Assembly: GCA_023249845.1 (NCBI GenBank)
Contig: JAHFBW010000002.1
Coordinates: 1-50,657 of the forward strand
DNA from: Candidatus Eiseniibacteriota bacterium
Lineage (GTDB): Bacteria > Eisenbacteria > RBG-16-71-46
DNA length: 50,657 bases
Reading direction: 5' to 3'
Shown: piece after piece, positions 10,253-36,046 of the stretch
Position numbering within the stretch: the first letter of the stretch is position 1
Layout of the letters: each line of letters begins with the position of its first letter
Notes under the pieces: model-generated
The model's input: only the letters and a program-made list of their open reading frames with translations
The model's database searches: none
What the model was told of the DNA's origin: nothing
Program-made: the position numbers and the translations under genes

Positions 10253-10530
10253 CTAGGCTCCGTTTGAGAACGCCACGCGAGCGCGTTGGGGGCGCCGGCG
10301 GGCCATTCGCAAGGAGCACCGACGAGGCAGTGTTCCAGCACACGCCGAGGAGGTGCGACGCCGCGAATGCCCCGCCGCCGCCCCCAACCCGAAGGGCCGG
10401 GCAGGAAGGCGCCACCGGGCTGCGTCACTCGTCGTCGACAGCCGAGACAAGGCTTGTCTCCTCCTCGTTCCTTGCGCGGTGGTGCTTTCCGGCCCGGCGC
10501 GCTCGTGCGGCGTTCTCAAACGGAGCCTAG
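10253..10530. mobile_element. 278-bp non-coding element with 22-bp perfect terminal inverted repeats (MITE-like)
   Basis: CTAGGCTCCGTTTGAGAACGCC (10253-10274) is the exact reverse complement of GGCGTTCTCAAACGGAGCCTAG (10509-10530). The repeat extends to about 33 nt with 2 mismatches. It fills the entire intergenic space. Confidence 0.55.
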
Positions 10531-11732
10531 GCCCGTGCGCCGGCGCCGGCGTGCTGCGCGATGCGCTTTGCCGCCTCGGCCACGTCCTCGGCGCGCGTGG
10601 CGAGCGAGAGCCGCACCCAGTCGCCGTACTCGGGTCCGAACGCCGTGCCCGGCAGTGCCGCCACGCCGAAGCCCAGCCATTCGTCGATCATGTCCCACAG
10701 GTCGCGACCGTTGCGCGCTGCCGCGACGTTGGCGAACGCGTAGAACGCCCCCTTGGGCACCGGCGCGCGCACCGCGCTGCCGCCCGCGAGCCCGTCGAGC
10801 AACAGCCGGCGGCGCTCGTCGTAGGCCGCGCGCATGTGGTGGACGGCCTCCTGTGAGCCGGTCACGGCCTCACGCGCTGCGATCTGCGAGGCGGGGAACA
10901 CGCCGTGCGTGGTGTAGAACGCGAGCAACGGCCCGAACACGCTGCGCACCGCAGGCGGCGACACGACGTAGCCCACGCGCCAGCCGGTCATCGCGTAAGT
11001 CTTCGAGAATGTGAACACCGAGATCGTGCGCTCGGCCATGCCCGGGAGCGAGCCGAGCGAGACATGCTTCGCGCCGTCGTACGTGAGGTGCTCGTATGCC
11101 TCGTCCGAGATGACATAGAGGTCTCGCTCGATCGCCACCTCGGCGAGTGCCGCGAGATGCTCGCGGGAGAGCACCGCGCCGGTGGGGTTGTTCGGCGTGT
11201 TCAAGTAGATGCCGCGCGTCGCGGGGGTCAGCGCGGCGCGCAGGTGGGTCGCGAACTCGGCGGGCGTCCACACACCCGAGAGGAGCTCTAGGTACACGGG
11301 CAGCGTGCGGTAGCGCGCGCCTGACGCGAAGCCCACGAGCTTCGGGATGGCCATCCAGTGCGGAGACAGCACGAGCAGTTCGTCCTCGGCCGAGAGCAGG
11401 CACTGCATGGCGAGGTAGAGCCCGTGCGTGCCGCCCGCGGTGACGACGATGTCGTCCACGTGGGTGCTGAGACCGTTCTCCCGCGCGAGCTTCTGTACGA
11501 GGACTTCGCGAAGCGAGATCTCTCCGCGCTGGTCGGGGTAGTGCGTGTAGCCGTCGCGCGCCGCCTTCGCCAGCGCTTCCACGATGTGCGGCGGCGTGTC
11601 GAAGTCGGGCTCGCCGCGCTCCAGGTGCAGCACGCGCTCGCCGGCGAGTTCACGCGCGCGCGCCGCGGCCATGACGCGGCCCAATTCGGATGTCATGCGG
11701 AGCACAGGTCGATCGGCGATGAGACGAGGCAT
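10527..11732 (-). CDS. pyridoxal-phosphate-dependent aminotransferase, class I (aspartate aminotransferase-like)
   Basis: Motifs NTPNNPTG and FSKTYAMTGWRVGY (PLP lysine) are present. The ATG at 11732 has an AGGAG RBS. Confidence 0.9.
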   Translation of the reverse strand: MPRLIADRPVLRMTSELGRVMAAARARELAGERVLHLERGEPDFDTPPHIVEALAKAARDGYTHYPDQRGEISLREVLVQKLARENGLSTHVDDIVVTAGGTHGLYLAMQCLLSAEDELLVLSPHWMAIPKLVGFASGARYRTLPVYLELLSGVWTPAEFATHLRAALTPATRGIYLNTPNNPTGAVLSREHLAALAEVAIERDLYVISDEAYEHLTYDGAKHVSLGSLPGMAERTISVFTFSKTYAMTGWRVGYVVSPPAVRSVFGPLLAFYTTHGVFPASQIAAREAVTGSQEAVHHMRAAYDERRRLLLDGLAGGSAVRAPVPKGAFYAFANVAAARNGRDLWDMIDEWLGFGVAALPGTAFGPEYGDWVRLSLATRAEDVAEAAKRIAQHAGAGARA

Positions 11733-11923
11733 CACACGCTCCTGACGAGTGGAATGGAAATCGTGGGAGGCTGGCTTCGTCCACTGTAGGAGTTTTCCCA
11801 GCTGGCCGCACCGACCGGGCGACATGCGCGCACGGGGCGAATCGCACCCTCGAGCCGGGCACGAGCATTGCCTTGCCGGGGCGGACGATCCGTCGCGCGC
11901 ACCAGCAACGGGGGGAACGCATC

Positions 11924-13414
11924 ATGCCGAAGATCCATCTCAGGGACGTCTGCGATCAGCTCTCCGCGGCTGGCGATGTCGAAGGGGTCATCGACGCACT
12001 GCTGTCGTATCTCCGCGCTTATCAAGGGGATTGGCACCCGAGCCTGGCCCAGGTGGATACCCAGCGCGAGGTCGTGACGCGCGTCTGGCAGCGCGAACGC
12101 GGCCGATTGGACCGCCGTGACGTGGTGCTGCCGGTGGACCAGCTGCCCGCCCGCCTCGTGCGAAAGTTCTTCCGGCCGAGTGCATTCTTCAACGCCGCCG
12201 AGCGTCGTTCGCTCCTCTCCCGTGTCTTCCGGACCACACCTGTGTACGAGCCGGACCGGTTCGAGGCCACGCAGGTGCGTCCGCTCGTGGCTCCGGTGGC
12301 CTGGCACTCCTGCATCATCGTGCCGCTGGCCGATCAGGACGACCTGCTCGGCCTGCTCGTGCTGGTCTCGCCTCGCCGGAACGCGTTCCCGGGCCTGGCC
12401 GTGGAGACCGTGCTCGCCATGCGCACCATGGCCGCCGTGGCCATTGCAAGGCGCCTGCACTCGGAGGGTCGGATGACCCCCGAGACGCGCGTGGCCGAGG
12501 ATCAGTCACGCCGCGTGCAGGGCGCGTTCCAGGAGCGCGTGCGTCAGCTCGAGGCCGAGGCCACGACGCTGGCGCAGGACAACCGCTTGAAGTCGGAGCG
12601 CATCGAGATCCTGTCTCGCGAGCTGGACCGGCTCCAGCACACCGCACATGGTGAGCGCGCCGAGCTGGAGGTGCTCAGGCAGCAGCTTCATGCCCTGGAG
12701 GAACAGGGCGAGGCGGCCGGCCAGCATCTGCACGACGCATTCTCGCAGCTCGCCATCGTGCAGCAGCGCCTGAACGAGCAGCACGAGACCATGGAGTTCC
12801 TGCGCGAGGTGTTCGAGGTGTCCAGGGAGGAGCACGACCCCTCGCTCCTGTCACGCGCGCTGGTGCAGCGCTTCTGCGACGCGTTCGACGTGGATCGCTG
12901 CAGCCTCATGCGCGTGGACGACCAGGTGCTGCAGATCGCCGCGCATCGCGGCATGGACCCCACCGTGGCCGGAAGCGTCCGCCTGCCGCTCGGGCAGGGC
13001 GTGGCCGGCTGGGTGGCGCATCACCGGAAGCCCGTGCTCGTGCGCAAGGGCGGTGACGCCACGCCCGTGCGCCCGACCGGGGTGGATCACTACAACTCCG
13101 ACTCGTTCGTGTCGGTGCCGCTCGTGCATCGCAACCGGCTGCTTGGTGTGTTGAACCTGAGCAACAAACGGGACGGCAAGGCATTCGACGAGACGGACCT
13201 CGATCGCGCCATGATGGCGAGCGCCGTGATGTCGCTGGCCATGGGCGTGCGCGATGGCGCGCAGGACCCGGCCCCGGTGACCATGGCGCAGGCGGTGTAC
13301 ACGGACCCGCCGGTCACGCTCAGCGAACCCGTGGAGCTGGAGTCGCCGTCGGAAGCGGCGCGGCCGGTCTCCACCGAGCAACGCGAACTGAATCCCTTCG
13401 AACTGCGCGGCTAG
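11924..13414 (+). CDS. GAF, coiled-coil, GAF domain protein with no recognisable output domain
   Basis: The second GAF region reads FDVDRCSLMRV...GQGVAGWVA...VSVPL...LLGVLNL. A central heptad-rich segment separates the two GAF regions. I use the ATG at 11924 (MPKIHL). Confidence 0.75.
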   Translation: MPKIHLRDVCDQLSAAGDVEGVIDALLSYLRAYQGDWHPSLAQVDTQREVVTRVWQRERGRLDRRDVVLPVDQLPARLVRKFFRPSAFFNAAERRSLLSRVFRTTPVYEPDRFEATQVRPLVAPVAWHSCIIVPLADQDDLLGLLVLVSPRRNAFPGLAVETVLAMRTMAAVAIARRLHSEGRMTPETRVAEDQSRRVQGAFQERVRQLEAEATTLAQDNRLKSERIEILSRELDRLQHTAHGERAELEVLRQQLHALEEQGEAAGQHLHDAFSQLAIVQQRLNEQHETMEFLREVFEVSREEHDPSLLSRALVQRFCDAFDVDRCSLMRVDDQVLQIAAHRGMDPTVAGSVRLPLGQGVAGWVAHHRKPVLVRKGGDATPVRPTGVDHYNSDSFVSVPLVHRNRLLGVLNLSNKRDGKAFDETDLDRAMMASAVMSLAMGVRDGAQDPAPVTMAQAVYTDPPVTLSEPVELESPSEAARPVSTEQRELNPFELRG

Positions 13415-13594
13415 CCGGGATCATTCATGAACCGTGAATCGAGAGGGACGGATGTCCGTGAAGCGCAAGGCGAAGGCTTGGCCCGCGACGGAGTCGTGTC
13501 GGTGACACGTCGCAGGAGCGGTCCAAGCCTTCAACGCGACGATTCATGCGCAGCCGGCCCGCGCAGGCCAAGGGCTCTTGAATGATCCCGGCTA
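13412..13594 (+). mobile_element. 183-bp MITE-like palindromic element, copy A
   Basis: The terminal inverted repeats are TAGCCGGGATCATTCA and TGAATGATCCCGGCTA, and the interior is self-complementary. Homologous copies lie at 35180-35362 and 24961-25142. Confidence 0.7.
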
Positions 13595-14125
13595 AGGACT
13601 CGCTCGCCCTTGGCTCGCGTCACCGTCCAGGCGCTCACGCAGTTCGGTGAGCGCCTGACGGTGTGAAGCGAACGCGATGTCCTCTGGCAGTTGGTCGAGC
13701 GGGAACCAGGCCAGTTCGATGGCGTCGTCTCCCGCCCGCGGCTCGCCACCCGTCGTGATGCCGCTGTAGAGGATGAGCACCGCGCGCACGCGCGGATCGT
13801 CGAAGCCGGCGTAGACACCGAACAGCCCGGTGATCTGCGCGATGACGCCGGTCTCCTCCTGGAGCTCGCGCACGGCGCTCTGTTCGGGGTGCTCGCCCGC
13901 CTCCATGAAGCCCGCCGGCAGGCACCACGCGCCCGCGCGCGGATCCCAGCGGCGGCGCACGAGCAGCACGCGTCCGGTCTCGACGAGGATGACGCCAGCC
14001 GCGGGCACGGGATTCCGGTACCAGACGTAGCCGCACGTGGGGCATGTGGGCCGGATCATCCCGTGATCGTCGGCCGACGCCATCGGCGTGGCGCAGCGCG
14101 GGCAGTACGTCGGCGTGAACGGCAT
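13592..14125 (-). CDS. NUDIX hydrolase with N-terminal zinc ribbon
   Basis: The zinc ribbon is CPRC...CPTC and the Nudix box is GFMEAGEHPEQSAVRELQEETG. Confidence 0.85.
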   Translation of the reverse strand: MPFTPTYCPRCATPMASADDHGMIRPTCPTCGYVWYRNPVPAAGVILVETGRVLLVRRRWDPRAGAWCLPAGFMEAGEHPEQSAVRELQEETGVIAQITGLFGVYAGFDDPRVRAVLILYSGITTGGEPRAGDDAIELAWFPLDQLPEDIAFASHRQALTELRERLDGDASQGRASP

Positions 14126-17793: not shown

Positions 17794-17997
17794 GGGATTC
17801 CTCCTCGGTGAGTTCCCGGCTCGTGGGGGCCGCCGGGCGGCTTGCGACTCACGAAAGGCTCGGGCTAGCGTGGAACTTCTCGTACGGGGATCATTCATGC
17901 ATCGCGGGAATAGACAGGCGGATGGGCGGAATGGTTCCGCCCGCGCCGCCAGATTCCTCCGAACGCGGGCCAGAACGCGCGGCTTCCGGGAGCACCC

Positions 17998-24127: not shown

Positions 24128-24796
24128 TCAGTGCACCAGCGGCTTAGCGGCGCGAGCGCCCCACAGTTCGGCGAGCCGGCGATCGCGACCGCAGCCCAGC
24201 CGATAGCTGCGATAGCGGATCGGATCCTTCTTCCAGAAGTCCTGGTGATAGCCCTCGGCGGGCCAGAACGCCCCCGCGGCAACGATCTCGGTCACGATCG
24301 GCTGCTTGAGGACGTTCGACGCCTCGATCACGCGGCGGCTCTCCTCGGCCAGGCGCTTCTGGCGCTCGTCGTGGAAGAACACCACCGACCGATACTGGCG
24401 GCCGTGGTCGCAGAACTGGCCGTCGCCCTGCGTCGGATCGATGCCGTGCCAGAACAGGTCGAGCAGCTTCTCGTACGAGGTGACGGTGGGATCGAACGTG
24501 ATCTGGATGGATTCATAGTGCCCGGTGACGCCCGCGCTCACCTGTTCGTACGTGGGGCGCTGCTCGGGGCCGCCGGTGTATCCGGAGATCACGCTCTTGA
24601 CGCCGGGCTGCTGTTCGAACTGCGTCTCGCCGCACCAGAAACAGCCCATCGCGAACGTCGCAAGCTCGGTGCGCGCGGCCGCGGCGGGACGCGCGGGCGT
24701 GGTGGGCTTGGGCGTCACTGCCGTGGCGGTCGAGAGGCTGAGCGCTAGCGCCAGCAGTGCCAGAGATGGCGACAGGGCTCGACGAGCATGCGTCAT
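24128..24796 (-). CDS. msrA: peptide-methionine (S)-S-oxide reductase with signal peptide
   Basis: The active site is GCFWCGE. The ATG at 24796 has a GGAGG RBS, and the signal peptide is MTHARRALSPSLALLALALSLSTATA. Confidence 0.9.
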   Translation of the reverse strand: MTHARRALSPSLALLALALSLSTATAVTPKPTTPARPAAAARTELATFAMGCFWCGETQFEQQPGVKSVISGYTGGPEQRPTYEQVSAGVTGHYESIQITFDPTVTSYEKLLDLFWHGIDPTQGDGQFCDHGRQYRSVVFFHDERQKRLAEESRRVIEASNVLKQPIVTEIVAAGAFWPAEGYHQDFWKKDPIRYRSYRLGCGRDRRLAELWGARAAKPLVH

Positions 24797-24818
24797 GGTG
24801 GTCCTCCGGAGAGTTCTG

Positions 24819-24877
24819 CCCCGGACCATTCATGGGCGGCCGGTTTTCGCAGGCCCTGCGCTCATGAATCGCCGGGG
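24819..24877. repeat. mini-copy (about 57 bp hairpin) related to the 183-bp element
   Basis: CCGGACCATTCATGGGCGGCCGG...GCGCTCATGAATCGCCGGG matches the TIRs plus the right-arm sub-hairpin of the full element. Confidence 0.4.
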
Positions 24878-24960
24878 GTTTGCGGGCGCGAGTGAGTTGG
24901 ACGTAGAACGCGCGAGGCTCGGTCGCGTGACTCCTGGTGCGGTCAGGCCCCTGTCAGTTC

Positions 24961-25142
24961 TAGCCCGGACTATTCGTGAGCCCGTGGCCTGCGAGGGACG
25001 GCTGCCCATGAATCGCTGCGTTGAAGGCTTGGCCCGCTTCTGCGACGTGTCGCCGACAGGACTCCGTCGCGGGCCAAGCCTTCGCCTCGCGCTTCACGAG
25101 CATCCGTCCCTCTCGGCTCACGGTTCATGAATAGCCGGGCTA
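24961..25142 (-). mobile_element. 183-bp MITE-like element, copy C (inverted, more diverged)
   Basis: Its reverse complement aligns end to end with copies A and B. The ends are TAGCCCGGAC...TGAATAGCCGGGCTA, flanked by TA on both sides. Confidence 0.65.
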
Positions 25143-25673
25143 GGGCTCGGCTTCGTCGGCAGGCGGCGAGGAGCCGCGGCGCGTGAAGATCTCGGCCCAC
25201 TCTGCGAGCTCCTTCTTAGAGAGCTGGACGGGCTTGTCGGAAGCTTCGTCGCCAGTCCCCTCGCCCGATTCGCGCCCGATGTCGCCGAGCGCCGAGGCCA
25301 GGAACAAGTCGGCCAGCGACACGTCCGCGCCCTCCGCGCGCGCGTGACGGGCCACCTCGATGTCGGCGGTGACGACGGTGAGGCGCTCGTCGCCGCCTAC
25401 CCGCTGCTCGACGATTCGGCGGATGACGTCATCGGCCTTTTCCGGGAGTTTGGACCAGCGCACCTGGACGCGGCCCGTGAGCTCGTCGCGCCCGGACCCC
25501 TCGGCGCCGTCGAACACGATGATGAAGCGCGCGTCGTTGCCGCCCATCATCCATGACAGCAGGCTCACGAGCATGGCCCGAGATTCCTCGAGCGAGCGCC
25601 CCGGCCCCGGCCGGAGCCGCGGCGAGCGCAGGATCAGGTTGTACCCATCCACGATGACGAGCCGGGATTCCAT
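25140..25673 (-). CDS. NYN-domain (YacP/Rae1-like) predicted RNase
   Basis: It contains MESRLVIVDGYNLI...IIVFDG...TVVTAD, typical of the YacP family. I use the ATG at 25673. Confidence 0.75.
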   Translation of the reverse strand: MESRLVIVDGYNLILRSPRLRPGPGRSLEESRAMLVSLLSWMMGGNDARFIIVFDGAEGSGRDELTGRVQVRWSKLPEKADDVIRRIVEQRVGGDERLTVVTADIEVARHARAEGADVSLADLFLASALGDIGRESGEGTGDEASDKPVQLSKKELAEWAEIFTRRGSSPPADEAEP

Positions 25674-25723: not shown

Positions 25724-25934
25724 CGAGGGCGTGGTCGCGCGGAGAGCTTGCACGAGGAGCGCCCGGTGCCAACTCGGCCGAGGGCGTGGTCGCGTGGGGA
25801 TCTCGCACAGGGGGCGCCTGGACGTGGGCGGGAGGCAGGAAGCCGGAGCCCACGGCCAGACGAGCGAGGAGCGGCCAGGGATGGCCGCGACGAGCGTTCC
25901 CCTGTGCGAGATCCCCGCGCGACCACGCCCGACG
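25724..25934. repeat. three copies of a ~38-nt repeat (two direct, one inverted)
   Basis: The consensus is GGGCGTGGTCGCG(C/T)GG(G/A)GA(T/G)CT(C/T)GCAC(A/G)(G/A)GG. Copies lie at 25724-25764, 25779-25818 and, inverted, 25894-25934. Confidence 0.6.
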
Positions 25935-25977: not shown

Positions 25978-27222
25978 CTAGATCCCGCCCTTCGCCGTAT
26001 GGATGATCCGCCCCGTCACGCCCACCGCCCAGCCGCGCAGGCCGTCCACGAACCAGACGTCGTTCAATGCCTGTGCCGTGTTCGAGATCTGCGGGCTCCA
26101 CGCCACGCCGCCGGTGAGCGTCTTGAGCACCAGCCCCGTGCCGTTCGTGCCCACCGCGTAGCCCACGTTTCCGTCCAGCATCTGGAGGCCACTCACGTGG
26201 TTCGTGGCGCCGAACGTGCCGAGCGTCCACGCGAGTGAATCCGGCGTCGCCGCGGCGACCGGGTTCACGCCCTGGAGGCCGCCCGCCCATGCCATCTCGT
26301 TCGACACGCGCCACACCGCGCGGATCGGCACGGCCGTGATCGCCGGCTGCACCAGGTACCAGCTCCGGCCGCCGTCGTGCGTGCCCGCGATGACGCCGCC
26401 TTCGCCCACCGCCCAGCCGTTCGTCGTGTCTGAGAACGACACGCTGTTGAGCTGGAACGCCGTCGGGTAGAGCTTCGTCCACGACTTGCCGCCGTCGCCC
26501 GTGCGAAGCGTCACCCCATTCGAGCCCACCGCCCAGCCGTGCGAGGTGTCCGCGAAGCACACGCCGTAGAAGTTCTCGCTCGCCGCCACGTTCGTGAGCC
26601 GCGCCCATGACCGCCCGGCGTTGCGCGTGCGCATGACGGTGCCGCCGTGGCCCACGGCGAAACCGGTCACGTCGGTCGTGAACCAGATGTCGTTCAGGTT
26701 GAACGCCGTGCTGGAGGGCTGTGCGCCCCAGGTGGCGCCCGCGTCATCCGTGTGCACGATCGTGCCCGCGTCGCCCACCGCCCAGCCGTCGCGACCGTTG
26801 GACTGGAAGAACACGCCATTCAGGTCGTTCGTCGTGCCGCTCGGCTGCGTGTACCAGCCCGGCTGCACGTACACCGCCACCGTTGCCGTGTCCGACTTGC
26901 CGCCGGCCGCGGCAATCAACAGTGCCACGCCCTCCCCCGTTGCGGTCACGTGCCCGGAGGTCGACACCGTGATTACGCGGGCGTCGCTCGAGGACCACGC
27001 GAAGCCGGCTCCCGCCACCACCACGCTGTCCGTGTCGCGCGCGACCGCCGTGAACAGCCGCTGCTGCCCCACGACGAGCGTGTCGGTGGTCGGCGTCACC
27101 GTGACCGACGAGAGTGGCGGGAGCGGCGGGCTCAGCGTGCTCGTGCCGCAGTCGCAACCGATGAAGCTCGCGATGGCGGCCAGGGCGATGACGGCGGCGA
27201 GCGACAGATGACGTCCACGCAT
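25978..27222 (-). CDS. lipoprotein with Big_2 Ig-like domain and Ycf48/BNR-like beta-propeller
   Basis: The lipobox is ASFIGC. A Big_2-like VTVTP...LVVGQ segment is followed by repeated GWAVG..G.I..T.DGG.SW blades. Confidence 0.8.
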   Translation of the reverse strand: MRGRHLSLAAVIALAAIASFIGCDCGTSTLSPPLPPLSSVTVTPTTDTLVVGQQRLFTAVARDTDSVVVAGAGFAWSSSDARVITVSTSGHVTATGEGVALLIAAAGGKSDTATVAVYVQPGWYTQPSGTTNDLNGVFFQSNGRDGWAVGDAGTIVHTDDAGATWGAQPSSTAFNLNDIWFTTDVTGFAVGHGGTVMRTRNAGRSWARLTNVAASENFYGVCFADTSHGWAVGSNGVTLRTGDGGKSWTKLYPTAFQLNSVSFSDTTNGWAVGEGGVIAGTHDGGRSWYLVQPAITAVPIRAVWRVSNEMAWAGGLQGVNPVAAATPDSLAWTLGTFGATNHVSGLQMLDGNVGYAVGTNGTGLVLKTLTGGVAWSPQISNTAQALNDVWFVDGLRGWAVGVTGRIIHTAKGGI

Positions 27223-34498: not shown

Positions 34499-35038
34499 TC
34501 ACGGCAGGCTGAAGATGGAGTAGGAGGCGCCAAGCGTGATGTTCACCATCTTGCGCGCCACGTCGCCGTCGGCCGCCGCCTGCAGTTCACCGCGCAGATG
34601 CACGCCAAGTTTGGGCATGGGCGAGATCCCGAGCCCCAACCCCATGTGGTACGAGGTGAACGACTCGTCCTGGCCGGTGCGCTTGAACTTGGCGGAGCCG
34701 ATCCCGACGTAGGGGTAGAAGCTGAACGGACCCCCGAGGGTGAGCATGGCGTTCGCCCCGAACGTGGTGACATCGGAACCCTCGCGCGTCGTGCTGATGC
34801 CCGGCGCGATGTCGATGGTCTTGTCGCCGAGTCCCGACGACGAGAAGAACGGCTCCACGGTGAACAGCGGAACGAGTTTCACGGGCGCGCGGAAACCCCA
34901 CAGCGAACCCTTGTCCTGATCGTCCTGCACGATGGGCACGCTGGCGCCCGCGAAGAATCCGAGTCCGACACTGGCCGCTCGTGCGACGCCGGAGAGCAGG
35001 GCGGTCGCGGCGAGCGCGAACACGAGAACTCTCTTCAT
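34499..35038 (-). CDS. small outer-membrane beta-barrel protein (OmpW/porin-family-like)
   Basis: An AAGGAG RBS precedes the start, and the signal peptide is MKRVLVFALAATALLSGVARA. The sequence has alternating-hydrophobic beta strands and a C-terminal aromatic residue (SYSIFSLP). Confidence 0.7.
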   Translation of the reverse strand: MKRVLVFALAATALLSGVARAASVGLGFFAGASVPIVQDDQDKGSLWGFRAPVKLVPLFTVEPFFSSSGLGDKTIDIAPGISTTREGSDVTTFGANAMLTLGGPFSFYPYVGIGSAKFKRTGQDESFTSYHMGLGLGISPMPKLGVHLRGELQAAADGDVARKMVNITLGASYSIFSLP

Positions 35039-35179
35039 GGTTTGCTCCTTACTCGAGTGCATTCCAGTTAGAGGACCTGATCGGGGAGGCGAAGAGCCGG
35101 AGCCTCGCTGACCGAGAGCTCGGAATCAAGTGCGCAAACGTGGGCCCCGAGATCCAGTGGTCGGGCGCGCGGAGAACCC

Positions 35180-35362
35180 TGGCCGGGATTATTCATGAAC
35201 CGTGAATCGAGAGGGACGGATGTCCGTGAAGCGCAAGGCGAAGGCTTGGCCCGCGACGGAGTAGTGTCGGTGACACGTCGCAGGAGCGGGCCACGCCTTC
35301 AACGCAGCGATTCATGGGCAGCCGGCCCGCGCCGGCCACGGGCTCATGAATGATCCCGGCTA
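35180..35362 (+). mobile_element. 183-bp MITE-like element, copy B
   Basis: It aligns end to end with copy A, with about a dozen mismatches counted by eye. The right end CCCGGCTA overlaps the stop codon of 35360-36046. Confidence 0.7.
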
Positions 35363-36046
35363 GTGTCGCGTCTGCACGAGGTGCACGGTGGCGCCGCAGT
35401 GGCGCGCGAGCAGGTCGGCGACGCGCGCGAGCATGAGCGACAGGTGCTGGCTCGGCCGCTCCGCCGGGCAGTAGATGACCGCGAGCAGTGCGCGCGTGCC
35501 GTCGCTGACCTGCGTGCGTGCCGAGTCCGCCGTGGGCGCGCCGAATGCGCCCTCGTCGTCGGCGAGCAGCGGCCGACCGGCGAGGTTCACGCGGCCCTTG
35601 CGGATGCCTTCGTATCCTTCGCCGGGGCGACCGACGCGCGCGTAGATGGCGCCCTTCACGTTCGCGCGGTCGTAGAGCCCGAGCGGGAGCTGGTGCTCGA
35701 GCGACGCCAGGTTGCACGCGTCCACCGCGGGCTGGATGCGCGGCAGTCCCTTGCCCTGCAGCACGCGGCGCAGCAATGCCTCGCTCGCGGGCCGCGATTT
35801 CGTCGGGTCCACGCCCAGCCGATGGAACATGCCGCGAGTCTCGGCCACGCCCGGGATGTCGGCGGCAGCGCGCCCTTCGAATCGGCGCATCAGGCCGCGG
35901 ATGGACTCGTCGCGTTCGGTGTCGAACGCCTCGCCGAGCGGTTCACCGTGGAGCCCGTCGGCCTCGAGCCACCCCAGGGCGACCACGCCTCGGAGCGCTT
36001 CATCCATCTCGAGCGCGAGTCCACCTGCGCGAGCCTGCAGTGTCAT
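35360..36046 (-). CDS. B3/B4 tRNA-binding-domain protein (PheT B3_4-like)
   Basis: The 228-aa product contains the B3/4-like pattern ...FHRLGVDPTKSRPASEALLRRVL.G..LPRI...VD.CN..SLE..LPLGLYD. Confidence 0.75.
   Translation of the reverse strand: MTLQARAGGLALEMDEALRGVVALGWLEADGLHGEPLGEAFDTERDESIRGLMRRFEGRAAADIPGVAETRGMFHRLGVDPTKSRPASEALLRRVLQGKGLPRIQPAVDACNLASLEHQLPLGLYDRANVKGAIYARVGRPGEGYEGIRKGRVNLAGRPLLADDEGAFGAPTADSARTQVSDGTRALLAVIYCPAERPSQHLSLMLARVADLLARHCGATVHLVQTRH

Follow-up and report, generated by a model that had tools for sequence, protein, structure and literature searches.

A probable miniature transposable element with IS1380-type ends at the stop codons of convergent genes in a Candidatus Eiseniibacteriota genome

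Small non-coding repeats such as Correia/NEMIS, ERIC and RUP are 100-200 bp long, carry terminal inverted repeats (TIRs), form long hairpins, lie at gene ends and can be co-transcribed with genes; their documented functions include promoters, IHF sites and RNase III processing, and transposable elements of the miniature inverted-repeat type (MITEs) such as Correia and ERIC affect mRNA processing. Insertion sequences (ISs) of the IS630/IS870 type and the Stowaway-type MITEs of Tc1/mariner combine a preference for CTAG with an interplay with TAG stop codons and small palindromic MITE derivatives: IS630 targets CTAG and duplicates TA, and the CTAG target of IS870 completes the stop codon of that element's own open reading frame (ORF). 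Here, we analyzed a 183-bp inverted-repeat element at positions 13412-13594 of a 50,657-nt stretch of DNA from a Candidatus Eiseniibacteriota bacterium (assembly GCA_023249845.1, contig JAHFBW010000002.1); this whole 50.6-kb stretch is hereafter called the window. The element is, with high probability, one copy of a non-autonomous transposon, i.e., a MITE, with IS1380-type ends, which inserts at CTAG-like sites.

IS1380 elements and piggyBac, their eukaryotic relative, both generate 4-bp target-site duplications and end in 5'-CC..GG-3' (PMC10045372; the two are also paired in PMC5718144). The IS1380 family (IS1380, IS1247, ISEcp1, ISPme1) resembles the window element and the IS clade sharing its ends in its CC..GG tips, short TIRs and 4-bp duplication, within a family range of 4-5 bp. 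Unlike its members, the window element is 177 bp long (core) and non-coding, the clade strongly prefers a palindromic YTAR/CTAG target, for which we found no such report in the literature searched, and it differs from ISEcp1 and IS1247, which are described with 5-bp duplications (for IS1247, PMC3281130, Table 2). The clade also resembles piggyBac in the 4-bp duplication, the CC..GG tips (PMC10045372, PMC5718144) and a palindromic tetranucleotide target with a central TA (CTAG here, TTAA in piggyBac), although piggyBac belongs to another domain of life, has a distantly related transposase and prefers TTAA instead of CTAG. In contrast, IS630/IS870 and Tc1-type elements duplicate TA only and have unrelated transposases, whereas the termini here are of the IS1380 type and 4 bp appear to be duplicated. 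Correia/NEMIS, ERIC and RUP show no sequence similarity to the window element and have another transposase family and target; the label "Correia/NEMIS-like", given to the element in a preliminary description of the locus, is not supported.

The element lies between two convergent genes, encoding a GAF-domain protein and a NUDIX hydrolase. The features at this junction are as follows:

11873-13414, + strand: GAF-domain protein gene (Pfam E 5e-23), stop TAG at 13412-13414
13411-13414, no strand: left flank CTAG of copy A, a putative copy of the target duplication, whose TAG is the GAF gene stop
13415-13591, + strand: 177-bp core of putative MITE copy A, with CC..GG tips, left TIR CCGGGATCATTCATGA and right TIR TTGAATGATCCCGG
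13592-13595, no strand: right flank CTAA of copy A; 13592-13594, in reverse complement, form the TAG that ends the Nudix gene
13592-14125, - strand: NUDIX hydrolase gene (Pfam E 6.5e-25), convergent with the GAF gene

Read across positions 13411-13595, the layout is CTAG-CCGGGATCATTCATGAA...TTGAATGATCCCGG-CTAA. The perfect 16-nt inverted repeat that closes the 183-bp element, TAGCCGGGATCATTCA (13412-13427) and TGAATGATCCCGGCTA (13579-13594), agreed in coordinates and sequence with the preliminary description, as did the lack of any unique intergenic DNA: between the two stops there is the element and nothing else (zero non-element DNA in the gap). GAF orthologues end in ...MRG-TAG at the position matching the left flank (the start of the window gene is uncertain, its 496-aa version coming from a gene caller), and the fourth base of the right flank, A and not G, is synonymous, being the third base of the final Pro codon in the Nudix gene. 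Both element ends thus coincide with TAG stops as had been described, but the further idea that the element itself supplies these stops did not hold: they are better read as copies of the duplicated target, and the element seems to supply both because each convergent gene retained its own copy of the duplicated tetranucleotide.

Two further full copies occur in the window. Searches with nhmmer and alignment recovered the homologous copies previously placed near 35180 (same orientation) and 24961 (inverted), defining a palindromic element of ~177 bp (core 176-177 bp, 88-94% identity). Compared to copy A, copy B has the same orientation and 94% identity, while copy C is inverted and 88-90% identical (nhmmer E 1e-61 to 1e-65). 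The copies, their remnants and the adjacent genes are:

35179-35363, + strand: putative MITE copy B (CTGG 35179-35182, core 35183-35359, CTAG 35360-35363)
35360-36046, - strand: B3_4 gene, Pfam-supported, with its TAG stop inside the right CTAG of copy B
34499-35062, - strand: OMP beta-barrel gene, whose 5' side faces the left end of copy B
24960-25143, - strand: putative MITE copy C, inverted (CTAG 24960-24963, core 24964-25139, CTAG 25140-25143)
25140-25142 (stop), - strand: NYN_YacP gene, Pfam-supported, with its TAG inside the right CTAG of copy C
24820-24877, no strand: decayed 58-bp member of the family, either a fragment or an internal-deletion derivative (CCCGGACCATTCATGGGC...GCTCATGAATCGCCGGGG; matches model positions 130-176, nhmmer E 5e-5)
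17887-17928, + strand: possible solo-TIR remnant (GGGATCATTCATG...), weak (nhmmer E 0.28)

When copies A, B and C are aligned, similarity stops exactly at the flanks CTAG/CTAA (A), CTGG/CTAG (B) and CTAG/CTAG (C), and the tips are CCGGG...CCCGG in A and B and CCCGG...CCGGG in C, i.e., the CC..GG termini used to recognize IS1380 and piggyBac elements (PMC10045372). Four of the six element ends are the TAG stop of a Pfam-supported gene (GAF, Nudix, B3_4, NYN). The cores have no coding capacity, since the ORFs that cross them (e.g., 13531-13818 and 24525-25130) are spurious, in line with the preliminary description of an interior free of real ORFs. The family shows the traits by which MITEs are recognized, i.e., small size and absence of coding sequence, TIRs (conserved in every copy), dispersed copies with unrelated flanks, empty sites, and termini in common with an autonomous IS. 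The 24820-24877 fragment is located upstream of msrA without intact CTAG flanks, at a place where a related locus (L002) has just a 95-bp spacer.

Orthologous loci, reached via homologues of the flanking proteins, lack the element at all three sites. At site A, the GAF and Nudix genes of L002 (GAF protein 81% identical) overlap on ggTTAGct, and those of L003 (84% identical) are separated by a 12-nt spacer; the three-way alignment of these loci with the window contains one clean 181-nt gap, corresponding to the core plus one tetranucleotide. A third relative, L004 (82% identical), has an unrelated 118-nt spacer without any copy of the element; this spacer (L004:2353-2470) apparently contains a degenerate duplicate of the Nudix gene 3' end (ccagcccgcatccactcaggcgcccgcgcag...gcgcctgacgatg) and not the MITE. 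At site C, the syntenic msrA-NYN region of L002 is missing both copy C and the 24820-24877 mini-element, and its NYN gene is two codons longer and ends at TGA. Site B is empty in L169/L170 (Candidatus Eisenbacteria isolate nzgw208; B3_4 protein 95% identical) as well as in L171, the B3_4 gene ending in CAC-TGA in L169/L170 versus CAC-TAG followed by the element in the window. Isolate nzgw208 has the family elsewhere, at a contig end (L034, 96.9% identical to copy B), and L134 provides a further copy in another assembly. By the names of its nearest relatives alone, the host is probably close to what NCBI calls Candidatus Eisenbacteria or Gemmatimonadales. Since the window sites are empty in relatives, we consider the element mobile, as the preliminary description had proposed for a non-autonomous MITE, and these alignments indicate that all three window copies are insertions made after divergence from close relatives.

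Next, we searched for the transposase family through the TIR, whose 16-20 bp consensus is CCGGGATTATTCATGA, also written 5'-CCGGGAT(T/C)ATTCATGA... When a genome collection with a single genome for each species was scanned for the terminal motif, 33 hits were returned, about half of them chance matches. The real ones, around a dozen, came from Planctomycetota, Verrucomicrobiota, Binatia, Acidobacteriota, Armatimonadota and Eisenbacteria. In each of these, ctag is directly followed by CCGGGATTATTCATGA, mostly with a partner end 120-230 bp off and an interior unrelated to that of the window element; no full-length IS with these TIRs was present in this collection, and a plasmid collection (blastn) and viral contigs searched for the TIR gave one chance-level match each. 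Three candidates were rejected: a 3.5-kb TIR "pair" in L031 encloses rhamnose-biosynthesis genes, and the TIR-adjacent ORFs in L017 and L037 encode a CTP synthase and a ROK kinase instead of transposases.

A metagenome scan for the TIR yielded at least 120 loci, mostly short elements forming at least 20 interior families of 66-314 bp, with the same termini and unrelated interiors. Planctomycetota, Verrucomicrobiota, Binatia, Acidobacteriota and Eisenbacteria are among the hosts of such families, and many of the unrelated MITEs with these ends measure 120-250 bp and are spread over six or more phyla. In at least six loci, the partner TIR was found ~1.7 kb off, enclosing an ORF of 457-500 aa. 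Three of the enclosed ORFs were compared with Pfam and two with NCBIfam, and those compared were IS1380-family transposases, with E-values of 5e-128 to 7e-67 for PF13701, and of 2e-115 and 1e-92 for NF033539 (386 and 311 bits, cut-off 180). The IS630/Tc1-like or IS5-like affiliation suggested earlier is at odds with this result, all tested full-length partners being of the IS1380 family. At least 8000 homologues of the transposase were retrieved from a protein database at E ≤ 1e-30, and the names attached to those 82-89% identical point to Nitrospira, Anaerolineae and Gemmatimonadales (the Gemmatimonadales-labelled homologue P0232 at 82%). The TIRs of the window element would thus be the ends recognized by a clade of IS1380-family DDE transposases, with a full-length ~1.7-kb IS, located elsewhere in the genome or in the population, presumably providing the transposase in trans; the shared terminal ~20 nt are enough for this. 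A literature search for the TIR string returned no paper, and searches of open-access text found no description of IS1380-derived MITEs or of a CTAG-specific IS1380 clade; the element is a MITE family of a known kind, apparently undescribed.

A considerable fraction of the TIR hits fall right at contig ends (L034:1-158; within ~150 nt in, e.g., L056, L057, L067, L090, L099, L113, L134, L144, L148 and L156), which suggests that these elements, MITEs and ISs alike, interrupt the short-read assembly of metagenome-assembled genomes (MAGs) from soil and sediment. Some elements abut or are nested: two abut in L058:561-911 with a single shared 4-mer (CTTG) between them, and in L082:242-488 and L131:3119-3365 a 173-bp element sits within a 247-bp span having a third TIR. 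Such arrangements are consistent with re-insertion into a CTAG made by an earlier copy.

The target site was read from one closed 4.41-Mb Nitrospira contig, which carries ten IS copies that are 100% identical over 1703 bp and have the same TIRs and a DDE transposase. Seven copies are flanked by CTAG/CTAG and the others by TTAA/TTAA (L159), CTAA/CTAA and CTAA/CTAG, i.e., matching 4-mers lie on both sides of nine of the ten. Given zero substitutions inside the IS, the flank changes must derive from the target, and therefore 4 bp (YTAR) are duplicated and the tips of the element are CC..GG. This contradicts the earlier model of a TA duplication completed by a G belonging to the element, since TTAA/TTAA and CTAA/CTAA surround 100%-identical copies. 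Older MITE pairs are ambiguous between a 2-bp and a 4-bp duplication. We also considered the short-read metagenome IS contigs (L172-L187, two IS variants), which proved unusable for flank pairing because they are chimeric across IS copies: the same left flank is found with different right flanks (e.g., tccatcttat with tggcttcagg or gacccaccat), and one pair of flanks consists of the halves of a single sigma-54 activator gene.

Based on these patterns, the element would integrate at palindromic YTAR sites (about 75% CTAG) with a 4-bp duplication. The pre-insertion site A would have read GGCTA[G/A]GGACTC, with the convergent genes sharing one CTAG/CTAA as those of L002 still share TTAG, and the duplication would have given each gene its own copy of the tetranucleotide. 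Insertion at a C-TAG site would leave an intact CTAG on the gene side, and because the 4-bp duplication keeps the original stop on the gene, the protein is unchanged; the silence of such insertions had been anticipated correctly. Insertions at CTAG inside genes, on the other hand, would be lost to selection.

Base composition adds to this effect. CTAG occurs at 17 sites in the window versus 139 expected from base composition, an eight-fold depletion, and TTAA (1), CTAA (6) and TTAG (8) are likewise scarce next to GATC (321) and TCGA (368). The preliminary description had ascribed the pattern to a rarity of TA outside stop codons, which was overstated: the window contains 444 TA dinucleotides, and CTAG is the rare sequence. 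Among the 17 CTAG sites, four are element flanks and three of the other 13 are stops of coding-like ORFs (6/17 stops in all), while the 44 coding-like ORFs of the window use TGA 27 times, TAG 15 times and TAA twice. In this 70% GC genome, roughly one third of the CTAG sites that remain would therefore be "C + TAG stop".

The same coincidence was seen across all fetched loci, where element-adjacent CTAG ends were in frame with an ORF of ≥150 codons in 43/104 cases, the remaining CTAG ends in 111/1081 (odds ratio 6.2, p = 2e-14), although these counts include orthologous loci repeatedly and rely on ORF length instead of a gene finder. For loci with ≥62% GC, the corresponding values were 34/47 and 65/232, and two control frames gave 14/104 and 8/104 of the element-adjacent ends. 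In L162, a Nitrospira IS copy occupies precisely the stop codon of a P450 gene. The loss of intragenic CTAG insertions together with the harmlessness of C-TAG insertions leads to a stop-codon coincidence, and the excess over background CTAG is what such survivorship predicts; a genuine preference for stop codons is inseparable from it here. The element end can itself terminate translation: read inward (CT-AGC-CGG-GAT-TAT-TCA-TGA), the second frame of the TIR contains TCA-TGA at +18-20 (TAA in the Nitrospira IS), so with the TAG of the flank two of the three inward frames of CTAG-CCGGGATTATTCATGA stop within 20 nt. Three Nitrospira genes (L163, L164 and L167) are annotated as ending at the internal TAA, 16 nt inside the IS end.

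Several observations, along with the counting of repeated orthologous loci just mentioned, weigh against a MITE driven by an IS1380 transposase with a 4-bp duplication. In the window, the flanking 4-mers are identical for copy C, while those of A (CTAG/CTAA) and B (CTGG/CTAG) match at 3/4 positions and are imperfect repeats. No IS1380 transposase gene was detected by tblastn within the 50.6 kb, and the cognate transposase of this host would have to be encoded elsewhere. The window MITE and the full-length ISs found have only the terminal ~20 nt in common, so the MITE does not appear to be a simple deletion derivative of any of these ISs, and its direct parent is not among them. Finally, the tenth Nitrospira copy (L167, contig Ga0494333_301, 2188442-2193815) is 100% identical to the others and yet flanked by CTAA and CTAG. 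Post-insertion mutation is an unlikely cause given no substitution in 1703 bp; the mismatch could instead result from a repaired heteroduplex or from donor-flank carry-over as in piggyBac, the latter being an idea and not a finding.

Donor-flank carry-over would explain both the CTAA/CTAG pair around this IS and many xTAG/CTAG MITE pairs. By extension, the CTAG-specific IS1380 clade might be a bacterial functional analogue of piggyBac, with a palindromic target, donor-flank carry-over and perhaps seamless excision, and its stop-codon MITEs might be co-opted as hairpins uncoupling overlapping convergent genes or shaping mRNA 3' ends in GC-rich bacteria. We regard this extension as doubtful.

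Among competing explanations, the one that fares best assigns the MITE to the IS630/Tc1-mariner (or IS5) type, with a duplication of TA only and a G of the TIR rebuilding TAG. As this model predicts, and counter to a 4-bp duplication, the partner inner base is G in 12/14 MITE pairs whose outer flank base is not C, a count that includes decayed copies and, among the 12 supporting pairs, several that stem from one orthologous locus. Metagenome IS contigs also often read CTAG-IS-CTAA, but these short-read contigs are demonstrably chimeric in flank pairing. The TTAA/TTAA and CTAA/CTAA copies are incompatible with a fixed element G..C, as their "inner" base shifts with the target, and every full-length element with these TIRs that we tested encodes an IS1380-family transposase, not one of IS630 or IS5. 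A TA-only duplication, initially read from the MITE flank asymmetry, was dropped after the closed Nitrospira genome and the repeated orthologous loci were considered; membership in IS630/IS5 is largely refuted, and we judge this model unlikely.

Less probable still is that the hairpin is mainly a functional RNA or DNA element (a shared bidirectional terminator, mRNA 3' stabilizer or RNase III site) which selection retains at the ends of genes, its repetition being secondary. The strong self-complementarity noted earlier is real: the copy A element folds into a 71-pair hairpin with energies of -96.6 (+ strand) and -98.5 kcal/mol (- strand), at z = -6.0 (+) and -7.6 (-) relative to dinucleotide shuffles, none of 200 shuffles being as stable, and it directly follows stop codons at all three sites. 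A palindromic MITE architecture nevertheless accounts for such a long hairpin. The same junctions exist without the element in relatives with proteins 81-95% identical, and with respect to the upstream gene the element is found either way round. Rfam had nothing above the gathering threshold for the whole window and nothing at E ≤ 1 for 13380-13630, and a U-tract terminator scan of 13200-13800 found 0 terminator-like sites, the hairpin being followed by CTAAGGACTC. Compensatory pairs numbered only two among the three sequences compared, both in the TIRs, which makes covariation uninformative on an RNA structure. Across phyla, the conserved feature is the 16-20 nt end and not the fold; the same termini enclose unrelated interiors, and the conserved part is therefore the transposase-binding end. 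Nothing supports a dedicated RNA role of the element, although either flanking gene would give an RNA with a very stable hairpin at its 3' end, and an incidental effect on mRNA ends is plausible.

A REP/REPIN-type element mobilized by RAYT (an IS200-like Y1 transposase), or another IS200/IS605-derived palindrome, is hardly credible: the element does resemble REPINs as a palindromic extragenic repeat at gene 3' ends, often between convergent genes, but it has true 16-20 bp TIRs identical to those of DDE (IS1380) elements, duplicated 4-mers as flanks and no conserved GTAG head, and no RAYT turned up in the window or the loci, where no RAYT-directed search was made.

The window contains other repeats. 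A second, unrelated MITE-like element at 10253-10530 (278 bp with flanks) has the layout CTAG-GCTCCGTTTGAGAACGCC...GGCGTTCTCAAACGGAGC-CTAG, with 38-nt terminal inverted repeats that are 89% complementary. Its right CTAG contains the TAG stop of an aminotransferase gene (10527-11825, - strand) and its left CTAG directly adjoins the start codon (ATG) of the neighboring gene; the two genes overlap (ATGA) in L002, where there is no element. L001, which covers the window's own genomic region, also has the element, but 0 of the other 167 loci do, and an IS5/IS427-type 2-bp duplication in CTAG is possible. Another repeat cluster (25724-25930), located upstream of NYN and shortly ahead of the CTAG stop (25978) of the following gene, combines two direct repeats of 43 nt (81% identity between 25724-25766 and 25779-25821) with an inverted repeat of 32 nt (97% complementarity between 25782-25813 and 25899-25930). 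This region is probably intergenic, as the NYN gene encodes 183 aa in L002 versus a 274-aa ORF in the window. Direct repeats with a ~120-bp period at 26359-26789 (families D1, D3 and D8) lie inside a - strand ORF (25978-27222) and are probably protein-level repeats, given a PSII_BNR match in the L002 orthologue.

These results do not overturn current understanding, and their first consequences are practical. Elements flush with stop codons create spurious ORFs in the annotation of GC-rich uncultured bacteria, and, being often located at contig ends, they probably break assemblies; the TIR CCGGGATTATTCATGA in its CTAG context permits masking. For the IS1380 family, they point to a widespread clade, with at least 8000 close homologues of its transposase and a strong preference for a palindromic tetranucleotide that parallels the TTAA of piggyBac, and to a large, apparently undescribed set of MITE derivatives of that clade. 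For the host, the locus would illustrate how target specificity and base composition together steer a mobile element to harmless sites, i.e., stop codons, with no dedicated mechanism.

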